Origin: a virus
Virus record (IMG/VR): IMGVR_UViG_3300029876_000390
Length of the DNA: 64,000 bases
Strand: one strand, 5' to 3'
Part shown: piece by piece, positions 840-33,622 of the stretch
Layout of the letters: every line of letters starts with the position of its first letter
Numbering within the stretch: position 1 is the first letter of the stretch
Program-made: the position numbers and the translations under genes
Notes under the pieces: generated by a model
The model's database searches: none
Told to the model about the DNA's origin: nothing
What the model saw: the letters and a program-made list of their open reading frames with translations, nothing else

Positions 840-842
840 AGA

Positions 843-886: not shown

Positions 887-1299
887 AATGTCGTGAATTC
901 AAAAATGTATCAAATTTGACCCCAAAGTGTGTCAAGTCTGAAATCTGCAAGAGACCGTCATTTTGTTATCATATAGTCAGTTCAAGGGACAAGCCCACAG
1001 AGCCAAAACGAAAGTACCTGTCGGCAGTACCTCGGACAAATTAAAAAAATATCGAAGCCCGATTCTAGAGCAGGCGAAGGATACCATAAGCGATCTGACA
1101 GCACAGCAGAGTTATTTGCTGGAGCTGGAGGACTGAACATGGAATCACTCTAACCTTCTTTAGAATCGGGCTTTTTGCGTCTTTTGACCGCAGAGTCTGT
1201 CTGTTCCATGAGGGTGCCGCGAATCTGCCATGTATGTTCTTCAAAGCCAGAGCTTTCAGTATCCTTCCCTCCCAGAAGTCCGGGGGAAAGGACAGAACA

Positions 1300-2055: not shown

Positions 2056-2136
2056 AGAACTACTTAACTTTTGCCCCCAAACGGTGGTCTTTATGAGAGG
2101 GCCACCTCTCAAGTACATCGACAGGAGGAAAAACCT

Positions 2137-3747: not shown

Positions 3748-3758
3748 GGGAGGTCATC

Positions 3759-20401: not shown

Positions 20402-22520
20402 ACAGCTGACCCTCGGCAGCCTCTTTGATGGCTCCGGGGGTTTTCCATTGGGCGGGCTTTTGACCGGGCAGATCACTCCGGTGTGGAGCAGTGAGATCGA
20501 GCCGTTTGCCATCCGGGTCACGACCAAGCGTCTGCCGCAGGTGAAGCATTATGGAGATGTGTCTACTATCAGCGGTGCAGACCTACCTCCTGTAGACATC
20601 ATCACTTTTGGCAGTCCCTGTCAGGATATGTCCATCGCGGGTAAGCGGGACGGTCTGGATGGTTCACGGTCCAGCCTGTTTTACGAAGCAATCCGAATCG
20701 TGAAGGAAATGAGGTGTAAGACCAATGGAGAAAAACCAAGATTTATCGTGTGGGAGAATGTGCCAGGGGCCTTCTCCTCAAACAAAGGACAGGACTTCAA
20801 AGCAGTCCTCGAAGCCGTCATCAGTGTTAAAGAACCGTCCGCCTCGGTGCCTGCGCCTGAGAAGAAAGGATGGCCTGACGCTGACTACTACGTGGGAGAC
20901 GGATGGAGCGTCGCGTATCGAGTTTTTGATGCACAATGGTGGGGCGTTCCCCAAAGAAGAAAACGTATCTACCTTGTCGCAGATTTTGCAGACCAGAGTG
21001 CCCCAAAGGTATTATTTGAGTCCGAAGGCATGTCTCGGTATTCTGCGGAGGGCTTCCGTGCGTGGCAAAGAGCTGCCGCCGTTGCTGAAAGCGGCGCTGG
21101 AGAGACAGGCTGCAGTGGAGCAGGAGGACGGCTCTGTCTGAACGATCAGGGCGGAGAGAGGATGGATGTGACGGAAGAGGTGACAGCCACCCTCCGTGCG
21201 GAGGCACATCATCCGCCGTGTGTTATGGAAGCCGCTGGTTTCTGTACCGAGCATTCCGCAAATGCCAGAAGCATTGGATACGAAGAGGAACGGTCACCGA
21301 CCCTCCGGGCTGGTGTTGTGCCTGCTGCCATCGCACTGGAAAATCATCCTGCTGACAGCCGGGTGAAGATTTCCGAGGATGGTAAGGTGCAGACACTGAC
21401 AAGTCGGTGCGGTACGGGCGGCGGTAATGTCCCGATGGTCATGGACGCTGTTGAAAATTCAGTGGAAAGCCCGGTGAAAGAAGTTGAAAACTCTCCGGCG
21501 GTCACATTGAAGATCCGTTCCGGGTGTGAAGGCGGTGGCAAGGGCGCTATCTGGCAGGAAGAAAAGTCAGCTACCCTCGGCTGCAACAACGACCAGACAC
21601 TGTTCGTTCCAAAATGCTACGGTGTCTGCTCTAAAGCCAGCCACTCCATGATGTCCGATAATCCGTATAGCGGCTTCTATGAAGCGGAGACCTCCCGGAC
21701 ACTAGACCGCAGTGGTGGAGATCCGACCTGCAATCAGGGCGGTATCTGCGTGGTAGAGCCGATCGCCTTTACCCGGAACCAGAGGGATGAAGTCCGGGAT
21801 CTGGGAGAGAAGTCAGCGGCACTTGCAGCAGAGCCGGGGATGAAGCAGCAGACCTTCGTCCTGCAGGGCAACATGATCGGCCGCAAGGATGAGAACGGTC
21901 CGCAGGGGGATGGCGTCAATGAGGATGTCTGCTTTACACTGGATGCCACTGACCGCCATGCAGTCTGCGCACCGGAGGATGTGTATGCCATGACCACCGG
22001 CTCCTATATGCAGGTGGCAAAAGAAGTCGCACCGACTCTGATGGCGCGGGATTACAAAGACCCGACCACCATCGCACCGGCACCGCATCTGAACGAGGGT
22101 GTTATGGGAACGGTGGCAACTGGGGCGCATCCCAGCGGCTTCAATGGGCAGGATGCTTTCAATGACCGTCTGGTCATCGACAACCCGGAAGCGCAGCCGA
22201 CACCTGTGACCTATACCGTCCGCCGTTTGACACCGACCGAGTGTGCCAGACTGCAAGGATTCCCGGACTGGTGGTGCAGAGATCTCGGAACGGAAAACCC
22301 GACCGAAGAAGAGCTGGCATTCTGGGCAGATGTGTTTGAAACACACCGCAAGATCGTGACCCATGCCAAGAAGCCGAAGACGGAGAAGCAGATCCGGAAA
22401 TGGCTGGCTGACCCGTATACGGATTCGGCAGAGTACCGTATCTGGGGCAACGGCATATGCTTAGCCAACGCATTTTTTGTTCTGGCCGGCATTGCATGGT
22501 GCGCAGGTCTGGAAGAATAA
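20391..22520 (+). CDS. DNA (cytosine-5)-methyltransferase with a long variable / target-recognition region.
   Basis: Motif I LFDGSGGF, motif IV GSPCQDMS, motif VI FIVWENVPG, C-terminal motifs after a roughly 350-aa variable region. Confidence 0.8.
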   Translation: MENKQLTLGSLFDGSGGFPLGGLLTGQITPVWSSEIEPFAIRVTTKRLPQVKHYGDVSTISGADLPPVDIITFGSPCQDMSIAGKRDGLDGSRSSLFYEAIRIVKEMRCKTNGEKPRFIVWENVPGAFSSNKGQDFKAVLEAVISVKEPSASVPAPEKKGWPDADYYVGDGWSVAYRVFDAQWWGVPQRRKRIYLVADFADQSAPKVLFESEGMSRYSAEGFRAWQRAAAVAESGAGETGCSGAGGRLCLNDQGGERMDVTEEVTATLRAEAHHPPCVMEAAGFCTEHSANARSIGYEEERSPTLRAGVVPAAIALENHPADSRVKISEDGKVQTLTSRCGTGGGNVPMVMDAVENSVESPVKEVENSPAVTLKIRSGCEGGGKGAIWQEEKSATLGCNNDQTLFVPKCYGVCSKASHSMMSDNPYSGFYEAETSRTLDRSGGDPTCNQGGICVVEPIAFTRNQRDEVRDLGEKSAALAAEPGMKQQTFVLQGNMIGRKDENGPQGDGVNEDVCFTLDATDRHAVCAPEDVYAMTTGSYMQVAKEVAPTLMARDYKDPTTIAPAPHLNEGVMGTVATGAHPSGFNGQDAFNDRLVIDNPEAQPTPVTYTVRRLTPTECARLQGFPDWWCRDLGTENPTEEELAFWADVFETHRKIVTHAKKPKTEKQIRKWLADPYTDSAEYRIWGNGICLANAFFVLAGIAWCAGLEE

Positions 22521-22741
22521 ACTGGCCCGCTATATTACTAGGTAGAAAGCGACCTGGTGATATGGTGGGCTTACATATTGGTCCTATTTACACAACAGAT
22601 TCTGCAGTTCCTTGTGTAATTGGTCGAACATGAAGAATATCGGGAAATGGCCTTGCTATTTGACCGGTTCAGAGTGATATATGTGCTACCGAAAAAAACA
22701 TCGGGACGTACAAAGACAAAAAACGAAAGGGGCAATGAATT

Positions 22742-23833
22742 ATGTTGAAATTTGAATTGAACATAGCAGACCGTAAGACACTTGCAAATCGCATGGAGGA
22801 GCTGATGGGCATCCATCCTTACTACACCAGAGCACCGCTGTACGCATATGACATCGGCAACTACACCATCGACCGGGACGGCAATCTTCTGGTCGAGCCG
22901 GAGAATGCAGATGCCGAGCTGCTGACGACTCTGTTGAATGAGGGGTTGATCCGCGGCGGCGAGAGCATTGAGAGCACGGATGACCAGCCGGAAAACACAG
23001 AGCCGACTGAAAATTTGGCAGATGAGCCTGTGGCCGAAGAGGAGCCGGATGATACGGCAGAGGATGGTGCAACAGAGGATGAGCCGGATGCAGAGGAATC
23101 GGAAAGCGAAGAGCAGCCGGAAGCAGAAGACCAGCCGGAAGAAGTACCGCTGGATCTGGAACTTGCCTTCCCAACCAGCCAGCATAACGGAGTGAGCCTT
23201 CGCAATCTGGTCAACCTCATCTACAGCCGGGGCCGACTCATCAGCAAGGCAACGGGCGGGCACTTCCATGTGGAAACCGACCTGGTCGAAACACTGCGGG
23301 ATGACAGCTGCACCTATACGGTGGCAAACTTCATCGAGGCACTTAAGGGTTACGAAGCACAGTGTGGAACTGCGATGGAAGGTCTGGTGATCACAGAAGA
23401 AAAGGTTTCCTTCACAGGATTCCCGACGGCTTCCGACTATGATCACCTGACGGCTTTTGGTCACCTTGCCATCCTGATGAACCAGCAGGCGATCAGCCAG
23501 AAGCGCATCCAGGCAAAGGATGTCAACGATGAGAATGAGAAATACGCACTCCGCACATGGCTTCTGCGGCTGGGCATGAATGGCCCGGACTTCAAGGAAA
23601 CCCGCAAGATTCTCATGGAGAACCTTTCCGGCCATGCGGCTTTCCGCACGGATGAGGAAGCACAGAAGTTTCTTGCAAGGGAAAAGGCAAAACGGGATGC
23701 CCTGAAAGCCGCGAAACTGGCGGCACAGAACGGCGATCCTGCCACAGGGGAAACGGTCGAACAGGAAGAAAACCAGCCGACACAGCCCGACTGTGGGGCA
23801 GACACGGCGCAGATGCTGGAGGCGGGAGCGTAA
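22742..23833 (+). CDS. Hypothetical protein with an acidic linker and a C-terminal module shared with the downstream amidoligase.
   Basis: C-terminal NDENEKYALRTWLLRLGMNGPDFKETRKILMENLSGHAAFR aligns with amidoligase C-terminal TDNEKYAMRCWMLRLGFIGDEFATAREILLRNMEGNASWR. Confidence 0.55.
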   Translation: MLKFELNIADRKTLANRMEELMGIHPYYTRAPLYAYDIGNYTIDRDGNLLVEPENADAELLTTLLNEGLIRGGESIESTDDQPENTEPTENLADEPVAEEEPDDTAEDGATEDEPDAEESESEEQPEAEDQPEEVPLDLELAFPTSQHNGVSLRNLVNLIYSRGRLISKATGGHFHVETDLVETLRDDSCTYTVANFIEALKGYEAQCGTAMEGLVITEEKVSFTGFPTASDYDHLTAFGHLAILMNQQAISQKRIQAKDVNDENEKYALRTWLLRLGMNGPDFKETRKILMENLSGHAAFRTDEEAQKFLAREKAKRDALKAAKLAAQNGDPATGETVEQEENQPTQPDCGADTAQMLEAGA

Positions 23834-23989
23834 GCTCCCAAGCCCCCAATGGGGGCCGGAAAATATGCGAGACCCTCTTCCATTGTAACGATATTAACTC
23901 TGAAAATGTACATTATCAAGCGGATAAACTGCAGAAATGTACACGATCATTCTGCCTTATATTTGTCGAATATATGTTCTTTTATATCC

Positions 23990-24018
23990 TTGCTATTATC
24001 CGCACCTGACGGTAATAT
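23990..24018 (+). promoter_or_regulatory. Conserved promoter cassette copy 1 (TTGCTA-N17-TAATAT) upstream of the amidoligase.
   Basis: ccTTGCTAttatccgcacctgacggTAATATgcacataccgaaaggg; same architecture and leader as six other copies. Confidence 0.55.
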
Positions 24019-24065
24019 GCACATACCGAAAGGGAAAACAAGGAAAAAACAAAGGAGAACATACC

Positions 24066-25004
24066 ATGAACGATAAAACAAGAGAGCAGATTGAAGCCAT
24101 GAAGAACCAGACCATCGGAGTTGAGATCGAGATGAACAACATCACCAGAGAAAAAGCGGCAAGAAAGGTTGCCGAGTACTTCGGAACCAGAGCATGGAAC
24201 GCAGCCAGCGAGTACGGATATTACAGCTGGGCTTGCAAGGACCAGCAGGGCAGGGTTTGGAAATTCCAGAGGGACGTGAGCATCTACGGACCGGACGCAG
24301 AAAAATGCGAACTGGTCACCCCGATCCTCACCTACGACGACATCGAAACCTTGCAGGAAATCATCCGACTGCTCCGCAAGGCAGGCGCAAAGAGTAGCCC
24401 AAGCCGCGGATGCGGGGTCCACATCCACATCGGCAAAGGCGACCACACCGCAAAGACCATCCGCAACCTTGTGAACATCATGGCGGCGCACGAACAGCAG
24501 ATAGGCAGAGCCATCCGGATTGACGCAGGGCGCACCGGACATTATTGCCAGGTGGTCAACCACCGCTTCCTCGACCGGCTGAACCGCGAGAAGCCGACCA
24601 CCATGCGCAAGCTGGAAGACATCTGGTACGAAGGCAACGGTTCCAGCTGGGAAAACCGGAATGCCCACTACAATTCAAGCCGGTACCACATGCTGAACCT
24701 CCATGCCACCTTTACAAAAGGGACCATTGAATTCCGCCTTTTCCAATTCGCAGACCCAGCGGACGGAAAGCGCAACGGGCTGCACGCCGGTGAGATGAAA
24801 GCCTACATCCAGCTTTGCCTCGCAATGAGCCAGCTTGCCAAGATGGTCAGAACGGCAAGTCCGAAGCCCCAGCAGACCGACAACGAAAAGTACGCGATGC
24901 GGTGCTGGATGCTGAGGCTGGGATTCATCGGGGATGAATTCGCAACGGCAAGGGAGATCCTTCTGCGGAACATGGAGGGCAACGCATCCTGGCGGAACAA
25001 ATAA
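24066..25004 (+). CDS. Amidoligase_2 family enzyme (glutamine-synthetase-like amidoligase fold).
   Basis: About 310 aa; segments IGVEIEMNN, CGVHIHIGKGDHTAKTIRNLVNIMAAHEQQIGRAI and HYNSSRYHMLNLHATFTKGTIEFRLFQ are consistent with the putative amidoligase family. Strong RBS AAAGGAGAACATACC before ATG. Confidence 0.65.
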   Translation: MNDKTREQIEAMKNQTIGVEIEMNNITREKAARKVAEYFGTRAWNAASEYGYYSWACKDQQGRVWKFQRDVSIYGPDAEKCELVTPILTYDDIETLQEIIRLLRKAGAKSSPSRGCGVHIHIGKGDHTAKTIRNLVNIMAAHEQQIGRAIRIDAGRTGHYCQVVNHRFLDRLNREKPTTMRKLEDIWYEGNGSSWENRNAHYNSSRYHMLNLHATFTKGTIEFRLFQFADPADGKRNGLHAGEMKAYIQLCLAMSQLAKMVRTASPKPQQTDNEKYAMRCWMLRLGFIGDEFATAREILLRNMEGNASWRNK

Positions 25005-25071
25005 GCCGGGATGCACGGGCACCTTTTGGGCGGGCAACCGCCCTTGAGGTGGTAGAAGGAGGTGCAGGTTT

Positions 25072-25308
25072 ATGAAAAGCACGTTAAAAAATGAAAACAC
25101 ACCGGGAGGCAGGACCTTTAAGGTGACCATCACCGAGACCTACCAGAGAACGGTGACCATTTATGAATCTGAGATGAAAGAGCCGACCGTGGAGGAAGCC
25201 CAGCGTGTGGCAGAGGACTGGTGGCGGAACAGCCAGATCGAGCTTGGGACGGAGGATTTCCAGGGAGTGGAGTTCACTGGCAGGGAGGACGGTGAGGCAG
25301 ATGCTTGA
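25072..25308 (+). CDS. Small hypothetical protein between the amidoligase and the cyclotransferases.
   Basis: 78-aa ORF, RBS GGAGGTGCAGGTTT before ATG; its stop overlaps the start of the next gene. Confidence 0.45.
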   Translation: MKSTLKNENTPGGRTFKVTITETYQRTVTIYESEMKEPTVEEAQRVAEDWWRNSQIELGTEDFQGVEFTGREDGEADA

Positions 25309-25822
25309 ACTGATCAGCCGAAGCCCATCCAGATATTACCTTGCCTACGGAAGCAACCTTGACATGGAGCGGATGGGAAAGAGATGCCCTTACGCTGTGG
25401 TGGTCGGCACGACCGAGATCATGGGCTACCGGCTCCTGTTCAAAAAGAGCAAGACCGGCTGCTATGCCACCATCGAGCAGGATGCCAATGAAAGCGTACC
25501 AGCAGTGGTCTGGAAACTCTCGGAATACGATGAGCTCCTGCTGGACCGGTACGAGGGCTGCCCAAGATACTACTACAAGAAACAGTTTCAGCTTCCGGTC
25601 TGGAACCTGAACGGGAACCGCATGAAAAAGGCAAAGCCCTGCATCGCTTATGTGATGCACGAGGACCGGCGGCTTGGCTGCCCGGATGCCGAGTATTTTG
25701 AACTGCTGCGCGGCGGATACAGCGACTGGGAATTTCCGCTGGACACACTGAAGCGTGGACTGGCAGCTAGTATCGGAAGGGCGGAAGCCATCCGGTATCT
25801 GAAGAAGCAGCAGATGATGTAA
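25301..25822 (+). CDS. Gamma-glutamyl cyclotransferase-like protein (AIG2 / GGCT fold), copy 1.
   Basis: YYLAYGSNLDMERM N-terminal motif and LDRYEGCPRYYYK core typical of the AIG2/BtrG/GGCT family. Confidence 0.7.
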   Translation: MLELISRSPSRYYLAYGSNLDMERMGKRCPYAVVVGTTEIMGYRLLFKKSKTGCYATIEQDANESVPAVVWKLSEYDELLLDRYEGCPRYYYKKQFQLPVWNLNGNRMKKAKPCIAYVMHEDRRLGCPDAEYFELLRGGYSDWEFPLDTLKRGLAASIGRAEAIRYLKKQQMM

Positions 25823-25952
25823 GAGTACACGATCAAAAGCAAAAAACATTGTGCAGTATATGATGCTTATCGGCCTTGATAAATCAGGGCAGAAGAGTGA
25901 TATATACCATACCGCCAGACAAGAGCGGAGAAAACCGAAGGGAGAGATTCAA

Positions 25953-26432
25953 ATGAAGAACAAGAAATATTACATCGCCTACGGCAGCAACCTGTCGGTG
26001 GAGCAGATGGCATACCGGTGTCCGGATGCAAAAATTGCAGGACAGGCGGTGCTTGCAGGCTGGGAGCTTTTGTTCCGCGGCTGCGCCACCATCGCACCGA
26101 ACCCGAAGAAGAACACGCCGGTTCTGGTGTGGGAGATCTCGGAAAGGGATGAAGGAAACCTCGACCTCTATGAGGGCTACCCGAACTACTACCGCAAGGA
26201 AGACCTGAACATCGAACTGCTCCGGGAAGGAGCGGAACCGGAGATGGTGACCGCAATGGTCTACATCATGGAGAACGACTTCGGACACCGCGCACCGAGC
26301 CGGTATTACTACAAAGTCCTGCATGACGGCTACAAGGCATTCCACTTCCCGATGCACATCCTCGAAGGTGCGCTGAAGGAATGCATGGATAAGGATGCCG
26401 CCCAGCGGATGATCGAGGAGGTGCAGGCATGA
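25953..26432 (+). CDS. Gamma-glutamyl cyclotransferase-like protein (AIG2 / GGCT fold), copy 2 (paralog).
   Basis: YYIAYGSNLSVEQM and LDLYEGYPNYYRK motifs; paralogous to 25301-25822. Confidence 0.7.
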   Translation: MKNKKYYIAYGSNLSVEQMAYRCPDAKIAGQAVLAGWELLFRGCATIAPNPKKNTPVLVWEISERDEGNLDLYEGYPNYYRKEDLNIELLREGAEPEMVTAMVYIMENDFGHRAPSRYYYKVLHDGYKAFHFPMHILEGALKECMDKDAAQRMIEEVQA

Positions 26433-26896
26433 ATTTCGCAGATCAGAAAATGGTCAAGAAGTTGAGAAAAGAGTTTCCGGTCGGATGCCGGATCGTCCTC
26501 GATGAGATGGATGATAGGCAGGCACCGCCCATCGGAACGCAGGGAACCTGCAACTGGGTCGATGATGCCGGAAACATCTTAGTGAGCTGGGACACCGGAA
26601 GCCATCTGAACGTTGCCTACGGCGCGGACAGTTGCCACCGTGTGGCAACGGATGCCGAGGTCAAGGTGTCGCTCGACCGCCTTGGTAAAACGCGACAGAC
26701 CGGCCCACGTTGCCCCAGGTGCGGAGCAAAGCCCGACTGCTATGACCATCAGCAGCAGGCACTCAGCCGAAGGGCGGCCATCCAGATCTGCAACCGCTGC
26801 GGAACGGAGGAAGCATTAGAGGACATTGCATGGGGCGGACAGCAGAAGATGCATCTTGCAGACTGGGCAATCGTGAAAGGAGCCTGGGTCGAATGA
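26429..26896 (+). CDS. DUF4314-like protein with C-terminal zinc-ribbon-like cysteines.
   Basis: GTQGTCNWVDDAGNILVSWDTGSHLNVAYGADS matches the DUF4314 pattern (V.DdG.I.V.WD.G); CPRCG...CNRCG pairs follow. Confidence 0.5.
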   Translation: MNFADQKMVKKLRKEFPVGCRIVLDEMDDRQAPPIGTQGTCNWVDDAGNILVSWDTGSHLNVAYGADSCHRVATDAEVKVSLDRLGKTRQTGPRCPRCGAKPDCYDHQQQALSRRAAIQICNRCGTEEALEDIAWGGQQKMHLADWAIVKGAWVE

Positions 26897-27264
26897 GGGT
26901 TCTCCTGATCAAACCGATGGAGCATCCGCAGGTGGTGGACATTGAAAACTCCCTGAAAGAGTTCTACCGCATCCTCGACTGCGACTGTATCACAGCCACC
27001 TACCCGTGGGAAGAACGAGCCGCCCTGGTCACCGATGACAACGGGCTGTTCACTGAGAAGTCATTCAGCAGATACATCCCGGAACTGGAGCAGCCCATCA
27101 AGGGGAACTTCTTCATCTGCGGATTGGGCGAGGAAGATTTCGCAGAGCTGCCCCAGGACCTCATCCAGAAATTCAGGGAACGCTTCTGGGTGCCGGAGGC
27201 ATTCGTCAGCATGTTCGGGCAGCTGGCAGTCATCCAGATGGATGACGGAACGAAGCCGGAATAA
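26893..27264 (+). CDS. DUF3846-like protein.
   Basis: ATGA-coupled to the upstream DUF4314-like gene, a pairing common in Clostridia; about 124 aa. Confidence 0.45.
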   Translation: MRVLLIKPMEHPQVVDIENSLKEFYRILDCDCITATYPWEERAALVTDDNGLFTEKSFSRYIPELEQPIKGNFFICGLGEEDFAELPQDLIQKFRERFWVPEAFVSMFGQLAVIQMDDGTKPE

Positions 27265-27335
27265 GATACCACAATCAGAAAAATACCCTCTCGGCCAGAA
27301 AAGACCGGGAGGGCTTGGTTTAACAGGAGGAGCCT

Positions 27336-27527
27336 ATGGGACACAGAAAGATGCCTGCTTATGGCGAGAGGGAACACGGCGGCAGATACATTCTGGATAA
27401 ATACGAATGGTCGAGAAATCACTGCAAGGCGGTGACCATCCGCAGATGGAAAAGGGACCTGAAAAAGAAAGCCAGAGCGCATAACCGCAGAGTGATGCAT
27501 CAGGCAATACATGGCGAAGCCGATTAG
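27336..27527 (+). CDS. Small basic hypothetical protein.
   Basis: RBS AACAGGAGGAGCCT before ATG; 63 aa, Arg/Lys-rich. Confidence 0.4.
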   Translation: MGHRKMPAYGEREHGGRYILDKYEWSRNHCKAVTIRRWKRDLKKKARAHNRRVMHQAIHGEAD

Positions 27528-27726
27528 ACGGAAAATGGGGGCCTCAAAAGAATGAGAACCCCCTTCCAGTTTACTGTATATTACCTCTGGAAAGCAACGA
27601 TAGCAAGGAGAACCGCCGCCATAATGTACACAAACATCTGGCAGCGGTTTTGTGTATCATACCAAACCAAAACCGGGGATACGAGGCAGAGCCCCAGCCT
27701 CTGCTGGGGAGCCTCTGGGGGATTCC

Positions 27727-27978
27727 TTAGAAGAAATCCCTCATGCTCATGCCGACCTCGTTCAGTCGTTCCTCCATGCTGTGGTAGTGCCAATCCTCTT
27801 CCTCTTCTTCGGCTTCTTCCTCAAGCTCCTCTGGGAAAGGGTCGTGCCGCCATCCGGCTTTCTGGTATTCTTCTTCTCGGATGTCGTTGCGGTCGTAAAT
27901 GTCCAGCTCGTATTCTTCTTCAAGCTCTGCGATGCGGCTTTCGATTGCGGTTTCAACTTCTGTAATGGTCTTTTTCAT
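27727..27978 (-). CDS. Small highly acidic protein (possible DNA mimic); the only minus-strand gene in this island.
   Basis: Minus-strand RBS GGAGG 8 nt upstream of ATG 27978; sequence contains EELEEEAEEEEEDWHYH. Confidence 0.5.
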   Translation of the reverse strand: MKKTITEVETAIESRIAELEEEYELDIYDRNDIREEEYQKAGWRHDPFPEELEEEAEEEEEDWHYHSMEERLNEVGMSMRDFF

Positions 27979-28127
27979 GGTTTTTGTCCTCCGTTTTTGG
28001 TTTGGTTTTCTTTGCTTTCGTTGTGTGTATAATGCCGCAGAAACACATATATAGCAAGTCAATCAGGGGTCATATATGTACCAAACATGAGGGGCGAAGA
28101 TCGTTGATAATATGACGTTTTATGGCC

Positions 28128-28156
28128 TTGCTATCACAGGGCGGTGACGGTAATAT
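28128..28156 (+). promoter_or_regulatory. Conserved promoter cassette copy 2.
   Basis: ccTTGCTAtcacagggcggtgacggTAATATacagctac. Confidence 0.55.
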
Positions 28157-28187
28157 ACAGCTACAAAAAGCAAAGGAGGACAGCAAA

Positions 28188-28364
28188 ATGGCTGATTGGA
28201 GAACATGGAAAAAAGGGAGAAAGACAACATGGCACTGGAACGAATTCGATGGAAGCGGAAGCCGGGAAGGAATCATCACCGAGGTTCATGAAGACCATGC
28301 GATTATGGAAGCAGACGGCATGCACCTTTGGATCGACGATGACACGGCAGAGATGTTCAGCTAA
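28188..28364 (+). CDS. Small hypothetical protein (59 aa).
   Basis: RBS AAAGGAGGACAGCAAA before ATG; followed by the perfect hairpin CGGGGAG-ggaaaa-CTCCCCG (28369-28388). Confidence 0.5.
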   Translation: MADWRTWKKGRKTTWHWNEFDGSGSREGIITEVHEDHAIMEADGMHLWIDDDTAEMFS

Positions 28365-28444
28365 GAAAACGGGGAGGGAAAACTCCCCGGATAAACACAT
28401 AAATCCTCCAGATCAGGGGGCAGATGATCGTGTACTTTAGCCGC

Positions 28445-28473
28445 TTGATAGTGTCCGGCAGTGACGGTAATAT
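28445..28473 (+). promoter_or_regulatory. Conserved promoter cassette copy 3, with the upstream GATCGTGTACTTTAGCCGC box.
   Basis: gatcgtgtactttagccgcTTGATAgtgtccggcagtgacggTAATATacagctacc. Confidence 0.55.
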
Positions 28474-28503
28474 ACAGCTACCAAAACGAAAGGGGCAAAG
28501 AAC

Positions 28504-28710
28504 ATGGAACGCTACACTTACGAGATCACCTTTACACGGCTGGATGGACAGCCGGATGAAATCCAGCAGCACACCAGCGAGGAGCTGGCAAGAGAATGCT
28601 TCCGGCCTTTCGATGAGCCGGACAGTGCAGAGATGTACAGCAAAATCGAACTTAGCCGCCACGACTGGGAGGCAGCCACGGATGAGATTCTGGAAACGAT
28701 GACATTCTGA
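28504..28710 (+). CDS. Small hypothetical protein (68 aa).
   Basis: RBS AAAGGGGCAAAGAAC before ATG. Confidence 0.5.
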   Translation: MERYTYEITFTRLDGQPDEIQQHTSEELARECFRPFDEPDSAEMYSKIELSRHDWEAATDEILETMTF

Positions 28711-28725
28711 GAGGAGAACAAAAAC

Positions 28726-28986
28726 ATGACTTACACAAAAATCAACCTTTACCTTGCGAACGGAATCCCAGAGGCACTCAGCAACCTCTGGTACGGAAGC
28801 GACAGCGCGGTGGTCGAGATCAGGGATGCCGTTGAGGATGCGAAGAACGGCAAGGACCTTCTGAACCGCATCCAGAAGATGAAGCTCCTGCGGAAATTCA
28901 CCCTCGACAGGGAGAACGAAAGTCGCATCCGCTTCAAGGGAACGGACTGCTGGGGCAACGTAAGCTACCTCGAAATCATTCGCTAA
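28726..28986 (+). CDS. Small hypothetical protein (86 aa), co-transcribed with the upstream ORF.
   Basis: RBS GAGGAGAACAAAAAC before ATG; followed by the terminator GGCTGG-aaatga-CCAGCC-TTTT (29010-29031). Confidence 0.5.
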   Translation: MTYTKINLYLANGIPEALSNLWYGSDSAVVEIRDAVEDAKNGKDLLNRIQKMKLLRKFTLDRENESRIRFKGTDCWGNVSYLEIIR

Positions 28987-29115
28987 AGGCAAGGCCGACA
29001 GGCGCAAGGGGCTGGAAATGACCAGCCTTTTGCTCGTGTCTGTCTTCCGAAAGCTGGCATGAAAAGCACATAAATATGACAATTACAGGATTGAATGATC
29101 GTGTAGTTTAGCCGC

Positions 29116-29144
29116 TTGATAGTACTCCGGGGTGACGGTAATAT
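29116..29144 (+). promoter_or_regulatory. Conserved promoter cassette copy 4.
   Basis: gatcgtgtagtttagccgcTTGATAgtactccggggtgacggTAATATacagtcaccgaaagggg. Confidence 0.55.
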
Positions 29145-29188
29145 ACAGTCACCGAAAGGGGAAAACAACAAAAACGGAGGATACGACA

Positions 29189-29638
29189 ATGACGAAGAAC
29201 GAAGACCGCATCAATAAACTTTTCAAGGAACTGGTACCGGATACGGGCAAGGCAGACAGCCTCGCAGGGGAGCTGGTAAGGGCAATGAGCCGCATCGGAT
29301 ACCGCTTTTACAACGACGGCGACCAGCTGGGCATCGGCTACGGCAAGGAAACCTGCAACCCTGCAGGGCGGTTCCTTGGAGCCAAGGGCAACGACAAAAT
29401 CGCAAAGCTGACTGCAGATGCCTGGGCAGTCTACAGTGAGGAAGCCTACGAAAAGGTTCTGGACATCCTTTGCGGAGCGGTTGCCGACTATGTTGAGCAG
29501 AACCCAGACCTTAGAAACCAGCCGACCGAAGATATGTGGGACTTCAAGGATGAGGAAGAAGACCAGGATGACAGCTGGGACGAGGAAGAAGATGACTGGG
29601 ACGAAGAGGAAGATTACGAGGACGAAGAAAACTACTAA
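29189..29638 (+). CDS. Hypothetical protein with extremely acidic C-terminal tail (DEEEDQDDSWDEEEDDWDEEEDYEDEENY); candidate DNA-mimic / anti-restriction protein.
   Basis: RBS AAAACGGAGGATACGACA before ATG; 150 aa; the last 30 residues are about 80% Asp/Glu. Confidence 0.55.
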   Translation: MTKNEDRINKLFKELVPDTGKADSLAGELVRAMSRIGYRFYNDGDQLGIGYGKETCNPAGRFLGAKGNDKIAKLTADAWAVYSEEAYEKVLDILCGAVADYVEQNPDLRNQPTEDMWDFKDEEEDQDDSWDEEEDDWDEEEDYEDEENY

Positions 29639-29734
29639 GCCAGAGAAACAAATGGGGCTTGCCGGAAACGGCGGCCCTTTTCTTCTGCTGTAATACGCAC
29701 AGTTCCGGGTGGCTATCTTTGTGTAGTATAGCCG

Positions 29735-29763
29735 CTTGATAGTGTGTGACATAGACGGTAATA
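29735..29763 (+). promoter_or_regulatory. Conserved promoter cassette copy 5.
   Basis: gtgtagtatagccgcTTGATAgtgtgtgacatagacggTAATATgcacataccgaaacgg. Confidence 0.55.
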
Positions 29764-29808
29764 TGCACATACCGAAACGGAAAACCAAGAAAAACGGAGG
29801 AAACCACC

Positions 29809-30000
29809 ATGAAGAAGAACATTACCAAGGAAGAAGAAAAATCCCTGCTGGAGATCGCCAAGCGCCTGATGGCAGCGGTAGACAGTCGGGGCGACCTCGA
29901 AGCCCGCGACAATGACAGCGAGGACTTCATTGAGGTTCCGGTCTGGGGCATCCAGAAAGCAATGGAGGAAGCCTACCTGCTGGGACGGATGAACAGATAA
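29809..30000 (+). CDS. Small hypothetical protein (63 aa).
   Basis: RBS AAAACGGAGGAAACCACC before ATG. Confidence 0.5.
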   Translation: MKKNITKEEEKSLLEIAKRLMAAVDSRGDLEARDNDSEDFIEVPVWGIQKAMEEAYLLGRMNR

Positions 30001-30123
30001 ACCGACAGCCCCCGACACAGCCCCACACAGGGGCTTGTGCCACGGGTGGCAAAACAATCCGAAGGAACCGACAACGCCCCAGACAGGGGCAGATGTGGCG
30101 GCGTGGAGGAAGGGAAAGCACAC

Positions 30124-30330
30124 ATGGAAGAACGGATGATGGATGTCATCGTGGAAATCTACAACCACATGGATGACAGCGATAAGGATGCCTTCACGCT
30201 GGAGGCTGCCGAGGATATGGTGGAAGACCAGATCAGGATGGACAAGGAAGCTGGACGGGAACCGCTGGCATATGACCCGCAGTTCTTCTACGATACCATT
30301 GTGGAACTCATGAAGCAGGACGCAGAGTGA
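30124..30330 (+). CDS. Small acidic hypothetical protein (68 aa).
   Basis: Preceded by hairpins GCCCC-acaca-GGGGC and GCCCC-agaca-GGGGC; start ATG 30124 after GGAGGAAGGGAAAG. Confidence 0.4.
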   Translation: MEERMMDVIVEIYNHMDDSDKDAFTLEAAEDMVEDQIRMDKEAGREPLAYDPQFFYDTIVELMKQDAE

Positions 30331-30379
30331 CGTACATTCTGCCTGGTATTCCGGGCAGAAGATCGTGTACTTTAGCCGC

Positions 30380-30408
30380 TTGCTATCCTTTGCACCTGAC
30401 GGTAATAT
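30380..30408 (+). promoter_or_regulatory. Conserved promoter cassette copy 6.
   Basis: gatcgtgtactttagccgcTTGCTAtcctttgcacctgacggTAATATgcacataccgaaaggg (the spacer is identical to copy 1). Confidence 0.55.
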
Positions 30409-30465
30409 GCACATACCGAAAGGGGGAGGCCCCAAGGGAAAAACGAAAACACGGAGGATTTTATC

Positions 30466-30750
30466 ATGAAAAAGCATTTGATCGACTTTCCAGAAAACAA
30501 CATCAGCATAGAGAGTTTCTACGACCGACTCAGACCTTGCTACGACAGCATCATGCAGTTCGGTGACCGGGTTTTGGTTGCCCAGATGAACTGGAATGGC
30601 ATGCTGGAGGGAGCGGTATACGGATTTGTCGAAGACCCAGAGGAAGGCTGGTCACCGATTGAGTGCCGACTGGAGCTTCTGAAGATTTCCGATGAGACCT
30701 ACACGGATGCCGGTCACGCGATCGAGTGGTGCATCAAGAACGCATACTGA
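30466..30750 (+). CDS. Small hypothetical protein (94 aa).
   Basis: RBS AACACGGAGGATTTTATC before ATG. Confidence 0.5.
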   Translation: MKKHLIDFPENNISIESFYDRLRPCYDSIMQFGDRVLVAQMNWNGMLEGAVYGFVEDPEEGWSPIECRLELLKISDETYTDAGHAIEWCIKNAY

Positions 30751-30861
30751 AAAGGGCAGAGCTCCTTCGGGGGCTTTTGCTCGTAGTGGCGGATTTCTCC
30801 GGCGTGTAAATACACATAAATCCGACAAAAAGAGGTGTGTATGATCGTGCAGCATAGCCGC

Positions 30862-30890
30862 TTGCTATGTCCGGGCGGTGACGGTAATAT
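30862..30890 (+). promoter_or_regulatory. Conserved promoter cassette copy 7.
   Basis: gatcgtgcagcatagccgcTTGCTAtgtccgggcggtgacggTAATATacagtcac. Confidence 0.55.
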
Positions 30891-30948
30891 ACAGTCACAA
30901 CGAAGGGAAAAGCCCTACGGAAAACAAAACACACGGAGGATACAGAAC

Positions 30949-31326
30949 ATGACGAACAAAGCAAAAACCTACCTCAAGAACATTCAGGAAGCCGACACCG
31001 AGAAGAAGCTGATTGGCATCGAGATCGCCTTCAAGCAGGACATGACCCTCAGCTGCAACGACCTCGGAAGCCTTTGCAGGGCGGCAGAAGACAAGCGGTA
31101 CAGCCTGCGGAACAACGAGGAAACGCTGAAGCTGAAGCAGATCCTTTTCTTCCGGACGAAAGCGGAGATGGATGCCTACCACGACATGAGCCGCAAGCCG
31201 GAAGACTGGACAGAAGCGGAGATCGAGCAGCAGAGAAGCCGCTTCTGCAGCGTCTGGCAGGTCATCGAGGAAGCGGAGCTGGTCGATGAGTACGAGGCTT
31301 GGAAGGAAGCCAACCCCAACGCATAA
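30949..31326 (+). CDS. Small hypothetical protein (125 aa).
   Basis: RBS ACACGGAGGATACAGAAC before ATG; followed by the GCCCC-gaaaa-GGGGC hairpin (about 31348-31365). Confidence 0.5.
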   Translation: MTNKAKTYLKNIQEADTEKKLIGIEIAFKQDMTLSCNDLGSLCRAAEDKRYSLRNNEETLKLKQILFFRTKAEMDAYHDMSRKPEDWTEAEIEQQRSRFCSVWQVIEEAELVDEYEAWKEANPNA

Positions 31327-31517
31327 CAGCACCCAAAAGGTACACGCCCCGAAAAGGGGCTGTGCCTCGTATCCGATGTGTTTTATATAAAGTTGTCAAA
31401 ATGGGAAACTATTTACTATTCATACGAAAAAGTTTCCCGTTTGGGAAAATGATATTTTAAGGACTTCTTTGGAGGTCCTTTTTCTTTACCCATTTTTGCA
31501 GAAAGGAGGAGATGCCA

Positions 31518-31997
31518 ATGGCTACCAGAGGCAGAAAACCAAAGCCGACCGCCATGAAGGAGCTGGAAGGCAATCCGGGCAAGCATCCGCTGAACACCAG
31601 CGAACCGAAGCCTAACAAGAAAGCACCGGCCTGTCCGAAGTGGCTGGAGCCGGAAGCAAAGAAAGAGTGGCGCAGACTTGCAAAACAGATGGAAGCCATC
31701 GGCATCCTGACCGAAGTGGATATGGCGGCCTTTGCCGGTTACTGTCAGGCATATGCCCGATGGAAGGAGGCAGAGGAGTTCATCACCCAGCACGGCACCA
31801 TTGTCAAGACCCCGTCCGGCTACTGGCAGCAGGTGCCGCAGGTGTCCATCGCACAGACCTATCTGAAGATTATGAACAAGTTCGCAGAGCAGTTCGGCCT
31901 GACCCCGTCCTCCCGAAGCCGCATCATTGCTTCGGACGGCGGTCCTGCGGATGCTACCGATGAGATGGAAAATCTGCTGGGAGGAGGTGGAAGCTGA
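31518..31997 (+). CDS. terS: Terminase small subunit, P27 family.
   Basis: KELEGNPGKHPLN motif and Lys/Arg-rich N-terminus typical of P27-family terS; RBS AAAGGAGG 8 nt before ATG 31518. Confidence 0.8.
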   Translation: MATRGRKPKPTAMKELEGNPGKHPLNTSEPKPNKKAPACPKWLEPEAKKEWRRLAKQMEAIGILTEVDMAAFAGYCQAYARWKEAEEFITQHGTIVKTPSGYWQQVPQVSIAQTYLKIMNKFAEQFGLTPSSRSRIIASDGGPADATDEMENLLGGGGS

Positions 31998-33622
31998 TGG
32001 CAGAGTGCAGACCGAAAAACTATCCGAAACTGAAGGACTATAAACCAAGTCGGTTCATGCTTCCCAGCTGCCATTACGATGCCGCAAAAGCAGATCGGGC
32101 AGTAACCTTTATTGAGAACCTCCGACACACCAAAGGTAAGTGGGCAGGAAAGCGGTTCTGGCTGCTTCCGTGGCAGGAGCAGATCATCCGGGATGTGTTC
32201 GGCATCGTGGACGAAAAAGGGAACCGTCAGTTTCGCACGGCTTATGTCGAAATCGGCAAGAAAAACGGAAAATCCGAGCTTGCCGCTGCGGTGGCCTTGT
32301 ATCTGCTTTTTGCCGATAATGAGCCGTCTGCTGAAGTCTATGGTGCTGCCGCTGACCGCCAGCAGGCATCCATCGTTTTTGATGTTGCCCATCAGATGGT
32401 GCAGATGACCCCGGCACTTTTGAAACGGTGCAAGATCATGGCAGCCACCAAGCGAATCGTGAACTACGGAAACGCAGGATTCTATCAGGTTTTGTCTGCA
32501 GAAGTCGGTACGAAGCACGGCTTGAACGTGTCTGGTCTTGTTCTGGATGAGGTTCATGCCCAGCCAAACCGAAAACTCTACGATGTCCTTACCAAAGGTT
32601 CCGGTGATGCCCGTGAACAGCCTCTGTTCTTTTTAATCACCACGGCCGGCACGGACAAGGAGAGCATCTGTTACGAGCTCCACATGAAGGCACTTGACCT
32701 GTTGGCCGGACGTAAGATCGACCACACCTTCTACCCCGTGGTTTATGGACTGACAGATGAAGATGACTGGCACGATGAAGCCAACTGGTATAAAGCCAAT
32801 CCCTCTCTCGGCCAGACCATCCAGATCCAGCGTGTCCGGGATGCGTACCAGGAAGCACTTGATAACCCGGCAGAGGAGAATGTGTTCAAGCAGCTCCGTC
32901 TGAATATGTGGGTGTCCTCGTTGACCCGGTTCATACCGGAACACATCTACAACCTCGGCAACCAGCCTATCGACCTTGAAGCCCTCAAGGGCCGTGACTG
33001 TTATGGAGGACTCGACTTGTCCAGCACCGGAGACATCACGGCTTTTGTGCTGATGTTCCCGCCCAGAGTTCCAGAGGAAAAATACATCATGCTTCCGTTC
33101 TTCTGGATACCGGAGGATACGATTCCCCAGCGTGTGCGCAGGGCATCCGTTCCGTATGATGTCTGGTATCAGCAGGGCTACCTGATGGCGACCGAGGGCA
33201 ATGTCATCCATTACGGTTTCATTGAGAAGGTCATCGAGGAGCTGGGCAAGACTTATCACATTTTGGAGATTGCCTTTGACCGATGGGGAGCGGTGCAGAT
33301 GACCCAGAACCTTGAGGGGATGGGATTCACAGTTGTGCCTTTCGGTCAGGGCTTTAAAGATATGAGCCCGCCTACCAAGGAGTTCTACAAGCTCCTGATG
33401 GAAGGCAGGATCATCCACGGCGGTAATCCGGTCATGGCATGGATGGCGGGGAATGTGGTCGTGGATACCGACCCAGCTGGCAACATCAAGCCGACCAAGG
33501 CGAAGTCGCCGGAGAAGATCGATGGTATCGTCGCTGCGATCATGGCACTGGACCGCTGTATCCGAAATGAAGGTCAGCAGCAGGGAAGCGTCTACGACGA
33601 ACGTGACATGATTGTTTTTTGA
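31997..33622 (+). CDS. terL: Terminase large subunit (Terminase_1-like ATPase + nuclease).
   Basis: Walker A VEIGKKNGKSELAAAV, Walker B LVLDEVH, C-terminal nuclease region with DGIVAAIMAL. Confidence 0.9.
   Translation: MAECRPKNYPKLKDYKPSRFMLPSCHYDAAKADRAVTFIENLRHTKGKWAGKRFWLLPWQEQIIRDVFGIVDEKGNRQFRTAYVEIGKKNGKSELAAAVALYLLFADNEPSAEVYGAAADRQQASIVFDVAHQMVQMTPALLKRCKIMAATKRIVNYGNAGFYQVLSAEVGTKHGLNVSGLVLDEVHAQPNRKLYDVLTKGSGDAREQPLFFLITTAGTDKESICYELHMKALDLLAGRKIDHTFYPVVYGLTDEDDWHDEANWYKANPSLGQTIQIQRVRDAYQEALDNPAEENVFKQLRLNMWVSSLTRFIPEHIYNLGNQPIDLEALKGRDCYGGLDLSSTGDITAFVLMFPPRVPEEKYIMLPFFWIPEDTIPQRVRRASVPYDVWYQQGYLMATEGNVIHYGFIEKVIEELGKTYHILEIAFDRWGAVQMTQNLEGMGFTVVPFGQGFKDMSPPTKEFYKLLMEGRIIHGGNPVMAWMAGNVVVDTDPAGNIKPTKAKSPEKIDGIVAAIMALDRCIRNEGQQQGSVYDERDMIVF

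Follow-up and report, generated by a model that had tools for sequence, protein, structure and literature searches.

Integron arrays have a tyrosine integrase, attC sites, and one common Pc promoter. The morons of lambdoid and other temperate phages share no common flanking sequence, are often of deviating base composition, and are believed to enter by illegitimate recombination. The middle promoters of T4 depend on the phage-encoded factor MotA/AsiA and carry a MotA box in place of the -35. Promoter-early stem-loop (PeSL) cassettes are known in T4-type myoviruses (Arbiol et al. 2010, PMC2839356; Comeau et al. 2014, PMC4122927), and their mini-circles and promoter strength have been demonstrated (PMC2839356, PMC4122927). 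Morons were also discussed, and a comparison with integron gene cassettes was also made, for the PeSL phages (PMC2839356).

We analyzed a 64-kb stretch of viral DNA (the window), which appears to come from a temperate Ca. Heliusvirales-type siphovirus, probably a Faecalibacterium prophage. The nearest known analogue of its cassette array is the PeSL cassettes. Both systems have repeated cassettes of ~70-100 bp with a sigma-70-like promoter and a stem-loop, cluster in a variable region rich in small ORFs of unknown function, give every ORF its own promoter and terminator, and show insertions, deletions, and replacements between related phages with junctions in the cassette. However, PeSL cassettes belong to virulent T4-like myoviruses of Gram-negative bacteria, whereas this phage is a temperate siphovirus of gut Clostridia; there are several hyperplastic regions there and a single array adjoining terS here; the hairpin here lies outside the conserved motif, varies in sequence and position, and is part of the 3' end of the preceding unit; and the conserved part here takes in an invariant GACGG at the -10 plus an upstream box that is phased and contains GC, against an AT-rich upstream region there. 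As with morons, individual accessory genes, each with a promoter and terminator to itself, are present in some otherwise syntenic temperate relatives and absent from others, but all units in the window share one cassette, exchange occurs within that cassette, and GC content is unremarkable (0.51-0.53 in the array versus 0.52-0.58 nearby). Like T4 middle promoters, the cassettes offer many copies of one extended motif that goes beyond the needs of a host sigma factor, as for a phage regulon; unlike them, they retain the -35, and the only sigma-like protein here has region 4 alone. As in an integron, small and exchangeable genes, most of them unknown, stand in order at a single site in the genome, but there is no tyrosine integrase or attC structure, and each cassette has its own promoter.

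RESULTS

Seven cassettes in the window

Seven copies of CTTG(A/C)TA-N12-GACGG-TAATAT, all on the plus strand, were found where the initial annotation had placed them. Exact GACGGTAATAT occurs seven times in the 64 kb, again only on the plus strand (starts at 24008, 28146, 28463, 29134, 29754, 30398, and 30880), with TTGCTA or TTGATA at exactly 17 nt ahead in 7/7 copies. With up to one mismatch there were eight matches versus 0.39 expected, a number reached in 0/100 shuffles. A profile built only from copies of other genomes recovered all seven at E <= 6e-12 (4.5e-15 for cassette 1). The direct repeats in the window are spaced 317-671 nt apart.

23964..24037, plus: cassette 1; -35 TTGCTA 23990-23995, GACGG 24008-24012, -10 TAATAT 24013-24018, predicted +1 A 24025; predicted to drive the amidoligase operon
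23940-23949, minus: inverted box TGATCGTGTA of cassette 1, 40 nt upstream of the -35
28102..28175, plus: cassette 2; -35 TTGCTA 28128-28133, -10 28151-28156, predicted +1 A 28163; predicted target, 58-aa ORF 28188-28364 (plus)
28419..28491, plus: cassette 3; box TGATCGTGTA 28425-28434, -35 TTGATA 28445-28450, -10 28468-28473, predicted +1 A 28480; predicted targets, 68-aa ORF 28504-28710 and 86-aa ORF 28726-28986 (plus)
29092..29163, plus: cassette 4; box 29096-29105, -35 TTGATA 29116-29121, -10 29139-29144, predicted +1 A 29151; predicted target, acidic 149-aa ORF 29189-29638 (plus; helical bundle, disordered acidic tail)
29710..29783, plus: cassette 5; degenerate box ATCTTTGTGTAG, -35 TTGATA 29736-29741, -10 29759-29764, predicted +1 A 29771; predicted target, DUF6900 ORF 29809-30000 (plus)
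30124-30330, plus: 68-aa ORF downstream of the DUF6900 ORF, with no promoter of its own and probably sharing cassette 5
30354..30425, plus: cassette 6; box AGATCGTGTA 30360-30369, -35 TTGCTA 30380-30385, -10 30403-30408, predicted +1 A 30415; predicted target, Nmad4 ORF 30466-30750 (plus)
30836..30909, plus: cassette 7; box TGATCGTGCA 30842-30851, -35 TTGCTA 30862-30867, -10 30885-30890, predicted +1 A 30897; predicted target, 125-aa ORF 30949-31326 (plus), the last gene before terS

The window holds four further degenerate copies, one on the plus strand and three on the minus strand. The plus-strand copy (25876-25904), located 5' of the second GGACT gene (25953-26432), is of class B, a form that accounted for 12 of the 121 unique copies found by anchoring on the -35. 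Cassette 2 and the minus-strand copy at 28057-28029 form a back-to-back pair.

25826..25904, plus: variant "class B" cassette; TTGATA 25876-25881, then AGAGT-GATATA (TGaTATATA); inverted box 25826-25835
28057-28029, minus: TTGCTA-N17-CATTAT with the usual AAAAACGGAGGA leader; predicted target, acidic 83-aa ORF 27978-27727 (minus)
27616-27588 (element 27545..27616), minus: orphan copy, TTGCTA-N12-AGAGG-TAATAT-ACAGT, running directly into a hairpin (27575-27545) and then ATTTTCC, with no ORF; antisense to the 63-aa basic ORF at its 3' end
23919-23891, minus: box 23949-23940, TTGATA 23919-23914, N17, TAATAT 23896-23891; lacks GACGG and is aimed at the end of gene 22742-23833

Genes and hairpins of the array

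Each cassette precedes one or more genes, as had been proposed, but not always a single short ORF: cassette 1 leads into a 312-aa amidoligase operon, and cassettes 3 and 5 precede two ORFs each (68 and 86 aa; 63 and 68 aa). Nor are the small proteins devoid of recognizable domains, since two of them match Pfam (DUF6900 and Nmad4). The small proteins are putatively accessory in function, the anti-defence role first suggested for them being a candidate one, and their neighbors include several recognizable families.

24066..27264, plus: enzyme-gene block, predicted to be served by cassette 1 and the class B copy
24066-25004, plus: Amidoligase_2
25072-25308, plus: DpnD/PcfM
25301-25822 and 25953-26432, plus: GGACT, two genes
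26429-26896, plus: DUF4314 plus zinc ribbon
26893-27264, plus: DUF3846
27336..31326, plus (one minus): small accessory ORFs of the array
27336-27527, plus: 63-aa basic ORF

A stable hairpin follows every unit (z -1.9 to -4.5), but a U-tract is present in only about half, so the units may not be fully insulated from one another. The strong terminator-like hairpin ~35 nt ahead of the terS start marks where the array gives way to the packaging genes.

28370..31367, plus: unit-end hairpins, whole set
28370-28389; 29004-29033 (followed by UUUUG); 29654-29678 (followed by UUUUCUUCU), plus: hairpins
30020-30034 and 30076-30090, plus: hairpins, GCCCC-N5-GGGGC
30337-30360; 30754-30782 (followed by UUUUG); 31338-31367, plus: hairpins
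31459..31480, plus: strong terminator-like hairpin, 9 bp, then TTTTCTTT

Promoter anatomy and upstream box

The cassette is built like a sigma-70-type promoter: a 17-nt spacer (TTG(A/C)TA-N17-TAATAT in 7/7 window copies), an A 7 nt past the -10, and a purine-rich leader of 20-60 nt that ends in a Shine-Dalgarno site and start codon. The initiating regions are as originally described (TAATAT-ACAG in four copies, TAATAT-GCACATACCGAAA(G/C)GG in three), whereas the common leader end, AAAACGGAGGA, holds for only 4/7. Among 365 instances (224 loci plus the window), 320 had a Shine-Dalgarno site, start codon, and ORF within 80 nt, compared to 19% of random positions. When searches of other genomes were anchored only on the -35 context, TAATAT stood at exactly 17 nt in 97 of 121 unique copies and GACGG was present in 98 of 121; the -10 and GACGG are thus conserved although they were not selected for. 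Conversely, anchoring only on GACGGTAATAT gave a range of -35 sequences (TTGATA, 122; TTGCTA, 102; TGGATA, 38; TTGAAT, 6; TTGACT, 3; TTGACA, 1) that resembles the variation of a sigma-70 -35. The 12 bases of the spacer carry 0.1-0.4 bit each, whereas the A 7 nt after the -10 is conserved, which suggests selection rather than recent copying. On these sequence features, the cassettes are predicted to be active promoters, and the array would be transcribed early.

The GACGG-TAATAT core is almost invariant across copies, in motif scans that demanded this core and so undersampled the full range of variants. The TAATAT -10 matches the consensus at only 4/6 positions, and TGGATA, found in one phage subgroup, would make a poor -35 for a primary sigma factor. 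Such a near-invariant core exceeds what recognition by the primary sigma factor explains. The upstream box assigned to five copies is a fair description: GATCGTGTAC occurs with at most one mismatch at 28426, 29097, and 30361 and in degenerate form at 30843 and 29716. Among unique copies, 105 had box GATCGTGTA 10 nt from the -35, 34 had it at 19-20 nt, and 2 at 30 nt; in 15 it was inverted, at 41 nt. These helically phased distances suggest a dedicated regulator and fit the earlier idea that one regulator governs all units. No upstream box was found near the XRE gene in the window.

A sigma-like protein with region 4 only

The protein that had been called sigma-r4 is not a full sigma factor. 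It and 62 homologues matched sigma region 4 only; no sigma-2 domain was found, and in the model of the protein a beta domain occupies the sigma-2 place. Its gene is the first or second of the window's early operon, the cassette-bearing NatCom_3870 has a weak counterpart at the equivalent position, and there are contigs that hold both the region-4 protein and the motif.

1300-2055: region-4-plus-beta-domain protein, 251 aa

Distribution and exchange of units

Profile and motif searches found the same cassette in related phages: it occurs at >220 phage and prophage loci of gut Clostridia. More than 280 distinct copies from divergent phages, including phages whose TerL proteins are only ~62-65% identical, keep the core, with unrelated 12-nt spacers and unrelated genes downstream. 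The identical type of cassette precedes ~37 unrelated gene families (protein clusters), in keeping with the proposed modularity. Hosts of core-bearing phages include Faecalibacterium, Blautia, Lawsonibacter, Wujia, and Ruminococcus, and the cassette-bearing phages, a widespread lineage of the human gut, resemble Ca. Heliusvirales. In another kind of prophage, the core also stands ahead of large serine recombinase genes. The cassette had no match in the plasmid collection and no Rfam family at threshold.

Unit lists vary among relatives: entire units are present in one and missing in another, and the junctions fall within the cassette; the original reading of shuffled promoter-ORF-hairpin modules therefore holds. 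Relative L174 lacks the 58-aa unit, and its junction matches the window copy at 28146 to the left of the -35 and the copy at 28463 to the right of the -10. In L148 there is an additional 165-aa unit, and two alignment blocks overlap at 29729-29778. A 16-nt inverted repeat (27661-27676 and 27991-28006) brackets the 83-aa ORF unit, a pattern suggestive of inversion. Repetition, anatomy, spread, and gain and loss of units at the cassette are thus all directly observed.

DISCUSSION

On balance, we think it probable that the array serves its phage, a temperate siphovirus similar to Ca. Heliusvirales and probably a prophage of Faecalibacterium, as a store of portable promoter cassettes of the sigma-70 type. 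A quite different possibility, which we consider unlikely but worth serious attention, is a phage-specific promoter class that is silent with host polymerase alone and needs a phage protein to redirect or activate the polymerase, either the region-4-plus-beta-domain protein (1300-2055) or another binder of GACGG or the upstream box. These would then be middle or late promoters, not constitutive or early ones, as with the MotA-dependent middle promoters of T4. The invariant 11-nt core beside a spacer free to vary, -35 positions 5 and 6 that are almost always TA rather than the consensus CA (with the TGGATA variant), the phasing of the box, the place of the region-4 gene in the early operon, its counterpart in NatCom_3870, and the contigs with both protein and motif all favor such a class. 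The initiating region, moreover, covaries with the bases before GACGG to give GTGAC-N11-GTCAC, a hint that a dimer may bind across the -10 and +1. However, a region-4 protein without sigma-2 cannot alone read a -10, the -35, spacer, and -10 form an ordinary bipartite sigma-70 promoter, and the same core stands ahead of serine recombinase genes in another kind of prophage.

That adjacency, the large serine recombinase of the window phage itself (60557-62431), and the gain, loss, and inversion of units with junctions in the cassette could instead point to a core that is mainly a recombination site, like integron attC, with a dedicated recombinase moving cassettes and the promoter likeness secondary. 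We regard this as very improbable: neither dyad symmetry nor inverted repeats of the att kind were seen around the units, the crossover zone is the stretch of highest identity, as homologous recombination predicts, the core is intact in integrated prophages, and orientation and distance to the Shine-Dalgarno site and start codon are fixed, which such a site would not need. Hardly credible at all is the view that the repeats are nonfunctional, either remnants of a small mobile element or the product of recent tandem duplication without any part in regulation. Duplication could yield direct repeats 317-671 nt apart, but conservation of the core in >280 distinct copies from divergent phages, ahead of unrelated genes, largely refutes this view, whose remnant form the initial annotation had kept as an alternative; terminal inverted repeats are absent, copies are always intergenic and co-oriented with the following gene, and neither the plasmid collection nor Rfam (at threshold) gave a match.

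If the cassettes are indeed portable sigma-70-type promoters, host RNA polymerase with its primary sigma factor would read them, and each accessory gene or gene pair would be its own transcription unit closed by a hairpin. GACGG and the box GATCGTGTA, placed whole helical turns from the -35, would most likely be contact sites for a phage-encoded regulator, in which case all units would form one regulon. As long, near-identical direct repeats, the cassettes let homologous recombination add, delete, swap, and invert units, on the evidence of comparison among relatives, so that the region between the DNA-modification genes and terS acts as a plug-in site for accessory genes.

Cassette copies in the window

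The window is a prophage that is read almost wholly on the + strand. Its main genes and the promoter-like repeats of the array, which lies between the DNA-modification/amidoligase genes and terS, are as follows.

Gene content of the window and positions of cassette copies (cassettes 1 to 7 by the start of the -35 element)
471-839, XRE regulator
1300-2055 (start 1234 or 1300), protein with a sigma region 4 domain ("region-4 protein")
Replication genes: DUF2800 nuclease, Enc34-type ssDNA-binding protein, family A DNA polymerase (PolA), SNF2 helicase, D5-type primase
DNA-modification genes: SAM synthetase, HNH, ParB-N6 methylase, C5 methylase
After the modification genes: two amidoligase paralogues, array, TerS/TerL/portal, structural genes
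Near the right end: large serine recombinase
23919-23891, minus strand, degenerate copy
23990, + strand, cassette 1
25876, + strand, variant copy of class B, TTGATA...AGAGT-GATATA
27616-27588, minus strand, orphan copy, TTGCTA-N12-AGAGG-TAATAT, with a terminator-like hairpin directly after it (27545-27616 overall) and no ORF
28057-28029, minus strand, degenerate copy back to back with cassette 2, predicted promoter of an acidic 83-aa ORF
28128, 28445, 29116, 29736, 30380 and 30862, + strand, cassettes 2 to 7

The 64-kb window has seven exact copies of the 11-mer GACGGTAATAT, which are spread from 24008 to 30880 and all lie on the + strand. With up to one mismatch allowed, there were eight matches versus 0.39 expected, and 0 of 100 shuffles reached eight. 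All seven copies have TTGCTA or TTGATA at exactly 17 nt ahead of the -10 side and continue, downstream of the core (GACGG-TAATAT), with either ACAG... or GCACATACCGAAAGG. The upstream box, GATCGTGTAC, was present exactly or with one mismatch in three copies and in degenerate form in two more. All seven window cassettes were recovered (E values of 6e-18 to 6e-12) by a profile that drew exclusively on copies from other genomes. The initial annotation, which had placed and described seven such cassettes, was therefore accurate. The seven canonical copies and four degenerate ones lie within 7.4 kb.

The orphan copy (27545-27616, minus strand) has a predicted RNA of ~45 nt, antisense to the 3' end of a 63-aa basic ORF (27336-27527); it could specify a small antisense RNA or be the remnant of a deleted unit. 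TGTCGAA (23964-23970), ~20 nt ahead of the -35 element of cassette 1, is identical to the Bacillus Spo0A-box consensus. Elsewhere in the window, a protein with a PemK/MazF-like toxin domain (13502-14065, within the replication module) and an AAA_21 (AbiEii-like) ATPase near the right end (57127-58278) may be phage-borne toxin or exclusion genes.

Promoter-like anatomy

In all seven window copies, the -35 element is related to TTGACA and the spacer is exactly 17 nt, within the 17 +/- 1 nt of sigma-70 promoters; the TATAAT-related -10 element, TAATAT, agrees with the consensus at four of six positions, A2 and T6 among them. Among 315 unique core-anchored copies, the -35 element was TTGATA in 122, TTGCTA in 102, TGGATA in 38, and TTGAAT, TTGACT, or TTGACA in a few. 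With TTG fixed and the last three bases looser, this variation follows the pattern of sigma-70 -35 elements. When copies elsewhere were anchored on the -35 context only, 97 of 121 unique copies had TAATAT at exactly 17 nt and 98 had GACGG; a second class among them (n = 12) carried AGAGT-GATATA. An A is conserved 7 nt past the -10 element (1.1 bit) and is followed by C, placing a purine within the 6 to 8 nt expected of a start site. This A, a C before TTG, and a T before GACGG were conserved though not demanded by the search, and the 12 bases between the -35 element and GACGG were nearly free (0.1 to 0.4 bit). Since free bases are flanked by fixed ones, cassette conservation points to selection on individual bases and away from recent duplication or gene conversion. 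In 88% of copies, versus 19% of random positions in the same loci, an ORF of 35 aa or more with its SD sequence and start codon began no more than 80 nt downstream. On evidence that is all in silico, the reading of the cassettes as promoters is coherent.

Other sigma consensuses (H, E, F, G, K, D, and 54, compared by eye) were rejected, as none fits both sequence and spacing. Structured RNA in the leaders was rejected as well; an Rfam scan of 22000-33000 gave nothing above threshold, its only match being to a ctRNA at 29651-29688 (22 bits versus a gathering score of 50; E = 0.47).

Features beyond an ordinary promoter

Three features of the cassette, namely, the core, the box, and a covariation, exceed the needs of a primary sigma factor. 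GACGG-TAATAT hardly varies among phages with proteins 60 to 65% identical, and it is very rare for TAATAT to shift toward TATAAT. The end of the box, GATYGTGYR, is 10 nt upstream of the -35 element in 105 unique copies, 19 to 20 nt upstream in 34, and 30 nt upstream in 2, and 15 copies have the box inverted, at 41 nt. Such spacings correspond to whole turns of the helix, as would be expected of a protein obliged to face polymerase. Finally, the two bases that precede GACGG covary with the initiating region; they are GT in 50 of the 77 ...GTCAC-class copies versus 10 of the 61 ...CATAC-class copies. The resulting dyads over -10 and +1 (GTGAC-N11-GTCAC or CGGTA-N9-TACCG) are only a hint, since the copies are mutually related.

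Exact copies of TGATCGTGTA in the window are confined to the array, where they occur in both orientations. At up to two mismatches, it had no match in 1-4200, that is, near the XRE gene, and an operator of the XRE repressor was rejected as the identity of the box for that reason.

The region-4 protein has its sigma region 4 domain joined to an N-terminal six-strand beta domain, and its family counts hundreds of metagenomic homologues and is positioned at the head of the early operon. No sigma-2 domain was found in it, and a phage sigma factor combining sigma-2 and sigma-4 is not what this phage has.

In prophages of other Clostridia (loci L123, L134, L136, L165, L168, L176, L190, and L204), the core is part of the 3' end of a gene for a SHOCT_2-domain protein, whose C terminus it encodes (...DLIxxxxDGNM, stop), and tandem large serine recombinase genes are directly downstream. 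These copies, all retrieved by the exact core, show no synonymous codons for D, G, and N.

Units, hairpins, and recombination

A stable hairpin (z of -1.9 to -4.5) closes every unit, a unit being a cassette with its following ORF(s) and hairpin; such hairpins had initially been noted for most units. U-tracts were seen only at the hairpins after 28986, 29638, and 30750. At the end of the array, a perfect 9-bp hairpin (31459-31480), then TTTTCTTT, stands only ~35 nt ahead of the terS start and so leaves no room for a promoter between. The region 31450-31600 is 89 to 94% identical among relatives, and 31390-31450 never aligns. Given this conservation pattern and the position of the hairpin, the late genes may depend on read-through or antitermination from the array; alternatively, this region may be part of the packaging site.

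The arrays of relatives are syntenic and differ by whole units. In a Lawsonibacter locus (L174), the 58-aa unit is absent, and the junction matches window cassette 2 to the left of the -35 element and the cassette 3 unit to the right of the -10 element. In a Wujia locus (L148), an extra 165-aa unit with a cassette on both sides is located where two alignment blocks overlap on cassette 5. This deletion and insertion, with the differing unit lists in relatives, bear out the earlier view of the array as recombinationally shuffled units. Around the sole minus-strand unit is a 16-nt inverted repeat (27661-27676 and 27991-28006; 94% complementary), one arm of which is that unit's own leader; the repeat has the look of a scar left by inversion between cassette leaders. 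The inverted-repeat search found only this scar and the back-to-back promoter pair. There were no terminal repeats at the units, and a mobile-element remnant or integron was rejected on that account.

The closest parallel among known systems is the promoter-early stem-loop (PeSL) cassettes of T4-type phages. These pair strong sigma-70-like promoters with stem-loops, border uncharacterized ORFs in variable regions, and bring about insertions, deletions, and replacements through recombination (PMC2839356, PMC4122927). The window array likewise clusters in a variable region beside small ORFs, with insertion/deletion and replacement junctions inside the cassette. In PeSL the conserved motif includes both promoter and stem-loop; here the promoter part is conserved, and a hairpin of varying sequence and distance, outside the motif, precedes most cassettes. 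PeSL can form circular cassette molecules and belong to T4-like myoviruses. The window phage is of temperate siphovirus type with a serine integrase, so the array is an analogue of PeSL and not a member. New relative to PeSL are the setting in temperate phages of Gram-positive gut anaerobes, the distinctive extended core, and the phased upstream box. Units resemble morons in having their own promoter and terminator (in silico) and in being present or absent between syntenic relatives, but morons have no common flank and often a deviant base composition, whereas these units share one cassette and have a GC content (0.51 to 0.53) close to that of the surrounding sequence. Integrons, in contrast, have a tyrosine integrase (IntI), attC imperfect inverted repeats, and one promoter, whereas here each unit has a promoter; no IntI-type tyrosine integrase was found among the ORFs scanned.

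Interpretation of the cassettes

We favor, with reasonable though not high confidence, the reading that the cassettes are sigma-70-type promoters. Host polymerase would read each one, and a cassette with the next hairpin would form a self-contained unit. The extra conserved elements would be sites for a phage regulator that joins the units in one regulon, and the cassettes would double as stretches of homology through which units are gained, lost, or inverted. The main rival is a phage-specific promoter class that would need a phage factor for any activity. The near-invariant core and helically phased box are what it would explain, and the -35 variation and 17-nt spacer are those of ordinary sigma-70 promoters; we consider this rival unlikely, if still a serious one. 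A further reading, likewise unlikely in our view, is that the core and the phased GATCGTGTA box serve as a recognition code for a dedicated phage transcription factor found throughout the lineage, and that gut heliusviruses have a promoter class of their own. The region-4-plus-beta-domain protein heading the early operon may be a candidate for such a factor. If this were true, that class would control exchangeable host-takeover or counter-defence genes, and its motif could be a genome-wide flag for new accessory genes in unculturable gut phages.

Two further readings fit the data poorly. That the cassette serves as a recombination site would accord with the junctions inside it, but it sits badly with the fixed orientation and distance to SD and start codon, and we hold it to be very improbable. 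The pattern of fixed and free bases speaks against a non-functional repeat, and we give that reading hardly any credence.

Distribution and lineage

The motif recurs: at least 120 viral-contig loci carry it, many in multiple copies, and a scan of one genome per species yielded the full motif in ~100 places, mostly in gut or rumen Clostridia. Plasmids gave no match to the cassette. A contig of Faecalibacterium intestinale has seven copies with spacing identical to that in the window, and this species is therefore the probable host. A near-identical array is also present in Faecalibacterium strain CLA-AA-H281. Further hosts include Lawsonibacter, Blautia, Wujia, Acetatifactor, Eubacterium, and Oscillospiraceae. 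Gene order is constant (ParB-methylase, C5 methylase, amidoligase, DUF4314, amidoligase, GGACT, array, TerS/TerL), even in a second group with TerL only ~64% identical. The amidoligase pair and GGACT genes are conserved throughout the phage group; in the window, the second, divergent paralogue (22742-23833; PHROG 2443, E = 1e-38; no Pfam match) adjoins Amidoligase_2 upstream.

In a search for cultured or annotated relatives, megablast of the region returned one unannotated faecal phage contig, and matches in the cassette search were confined to three Ruminococcus NatCom phages, classed as Ca. Heliusvirales. Window TerL is 64.6% identical to that of one of these, NatCom_3870, and 76% identical to that of streptococcal Javan prophages. 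Of the marker-type genes of the order (as listed in PMC11283538), the window has DUF2800 nuclease, Enc34-type SSB, PolA, SNF2 helicase, HNH, C5 methylase, and SAM synthetase; the likeness to Ca. Heliusvirales is one of TerL identity and gene content. In the streptococcal relative phiSC070807, small ORFs are packed before terS without intergenic cassettes; per-gene promoters throughout the order were therefore rejected, and the array is specific to the Clostridia-infecting branch. The two papers defining the Heliusviridae/Heliusvirales lineage make no mention of promoters, and the searched literature held no relevant paper on the motif string.

Accessory genes

The array has ten small ORFs, mostly without known function. 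Across genomes, the ORFs downstream of the cassette form ~37 clusters, including amidoligase, a 149-aa acidic protein, Nmad4, DUF6900, a 125-aa protein, DUF7678, DUF7698, and an LPD28-domain protein seen in a relative. In a different kind of prophage, large serine recombinases also follow the cassette. Searches of Pfam, PHROGs, PADLOC, and PDB sequences found no anti-defence homologues among the array proteins, and the 149-aa protein amounts to a generic helical bundle and an acidic tail. Nmad4, DpnD/PcfM, DUF3846, and DUF4314 are families of a kind known from the invasion-phase genes of mobile elements. LPD28 counts among the polyvalent-protein domains described in PMC5512222. The array may have an anti-defence role, an idea drawn from position and association only.

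Ca. Heliusviridae/Heliusvirales have been reported in over 90% of the participants of one study, and the cassette would be a shared control element in this common gut phage lineage. It can be used to search for accessory genes ("guilt by promoter") and has already flagged ~37 families, of which almost none has a known function. Genetic tools are few for Faecalibacterium, Blautia, and further Clostridia of the gut, and the cassettes are candidate compact natural promoter and leader parts for them. Cassette-mediated gene shuffling, hitherto a matter of T4-type phages, would be extended to temperate phages of Gram-positive anaerobes.
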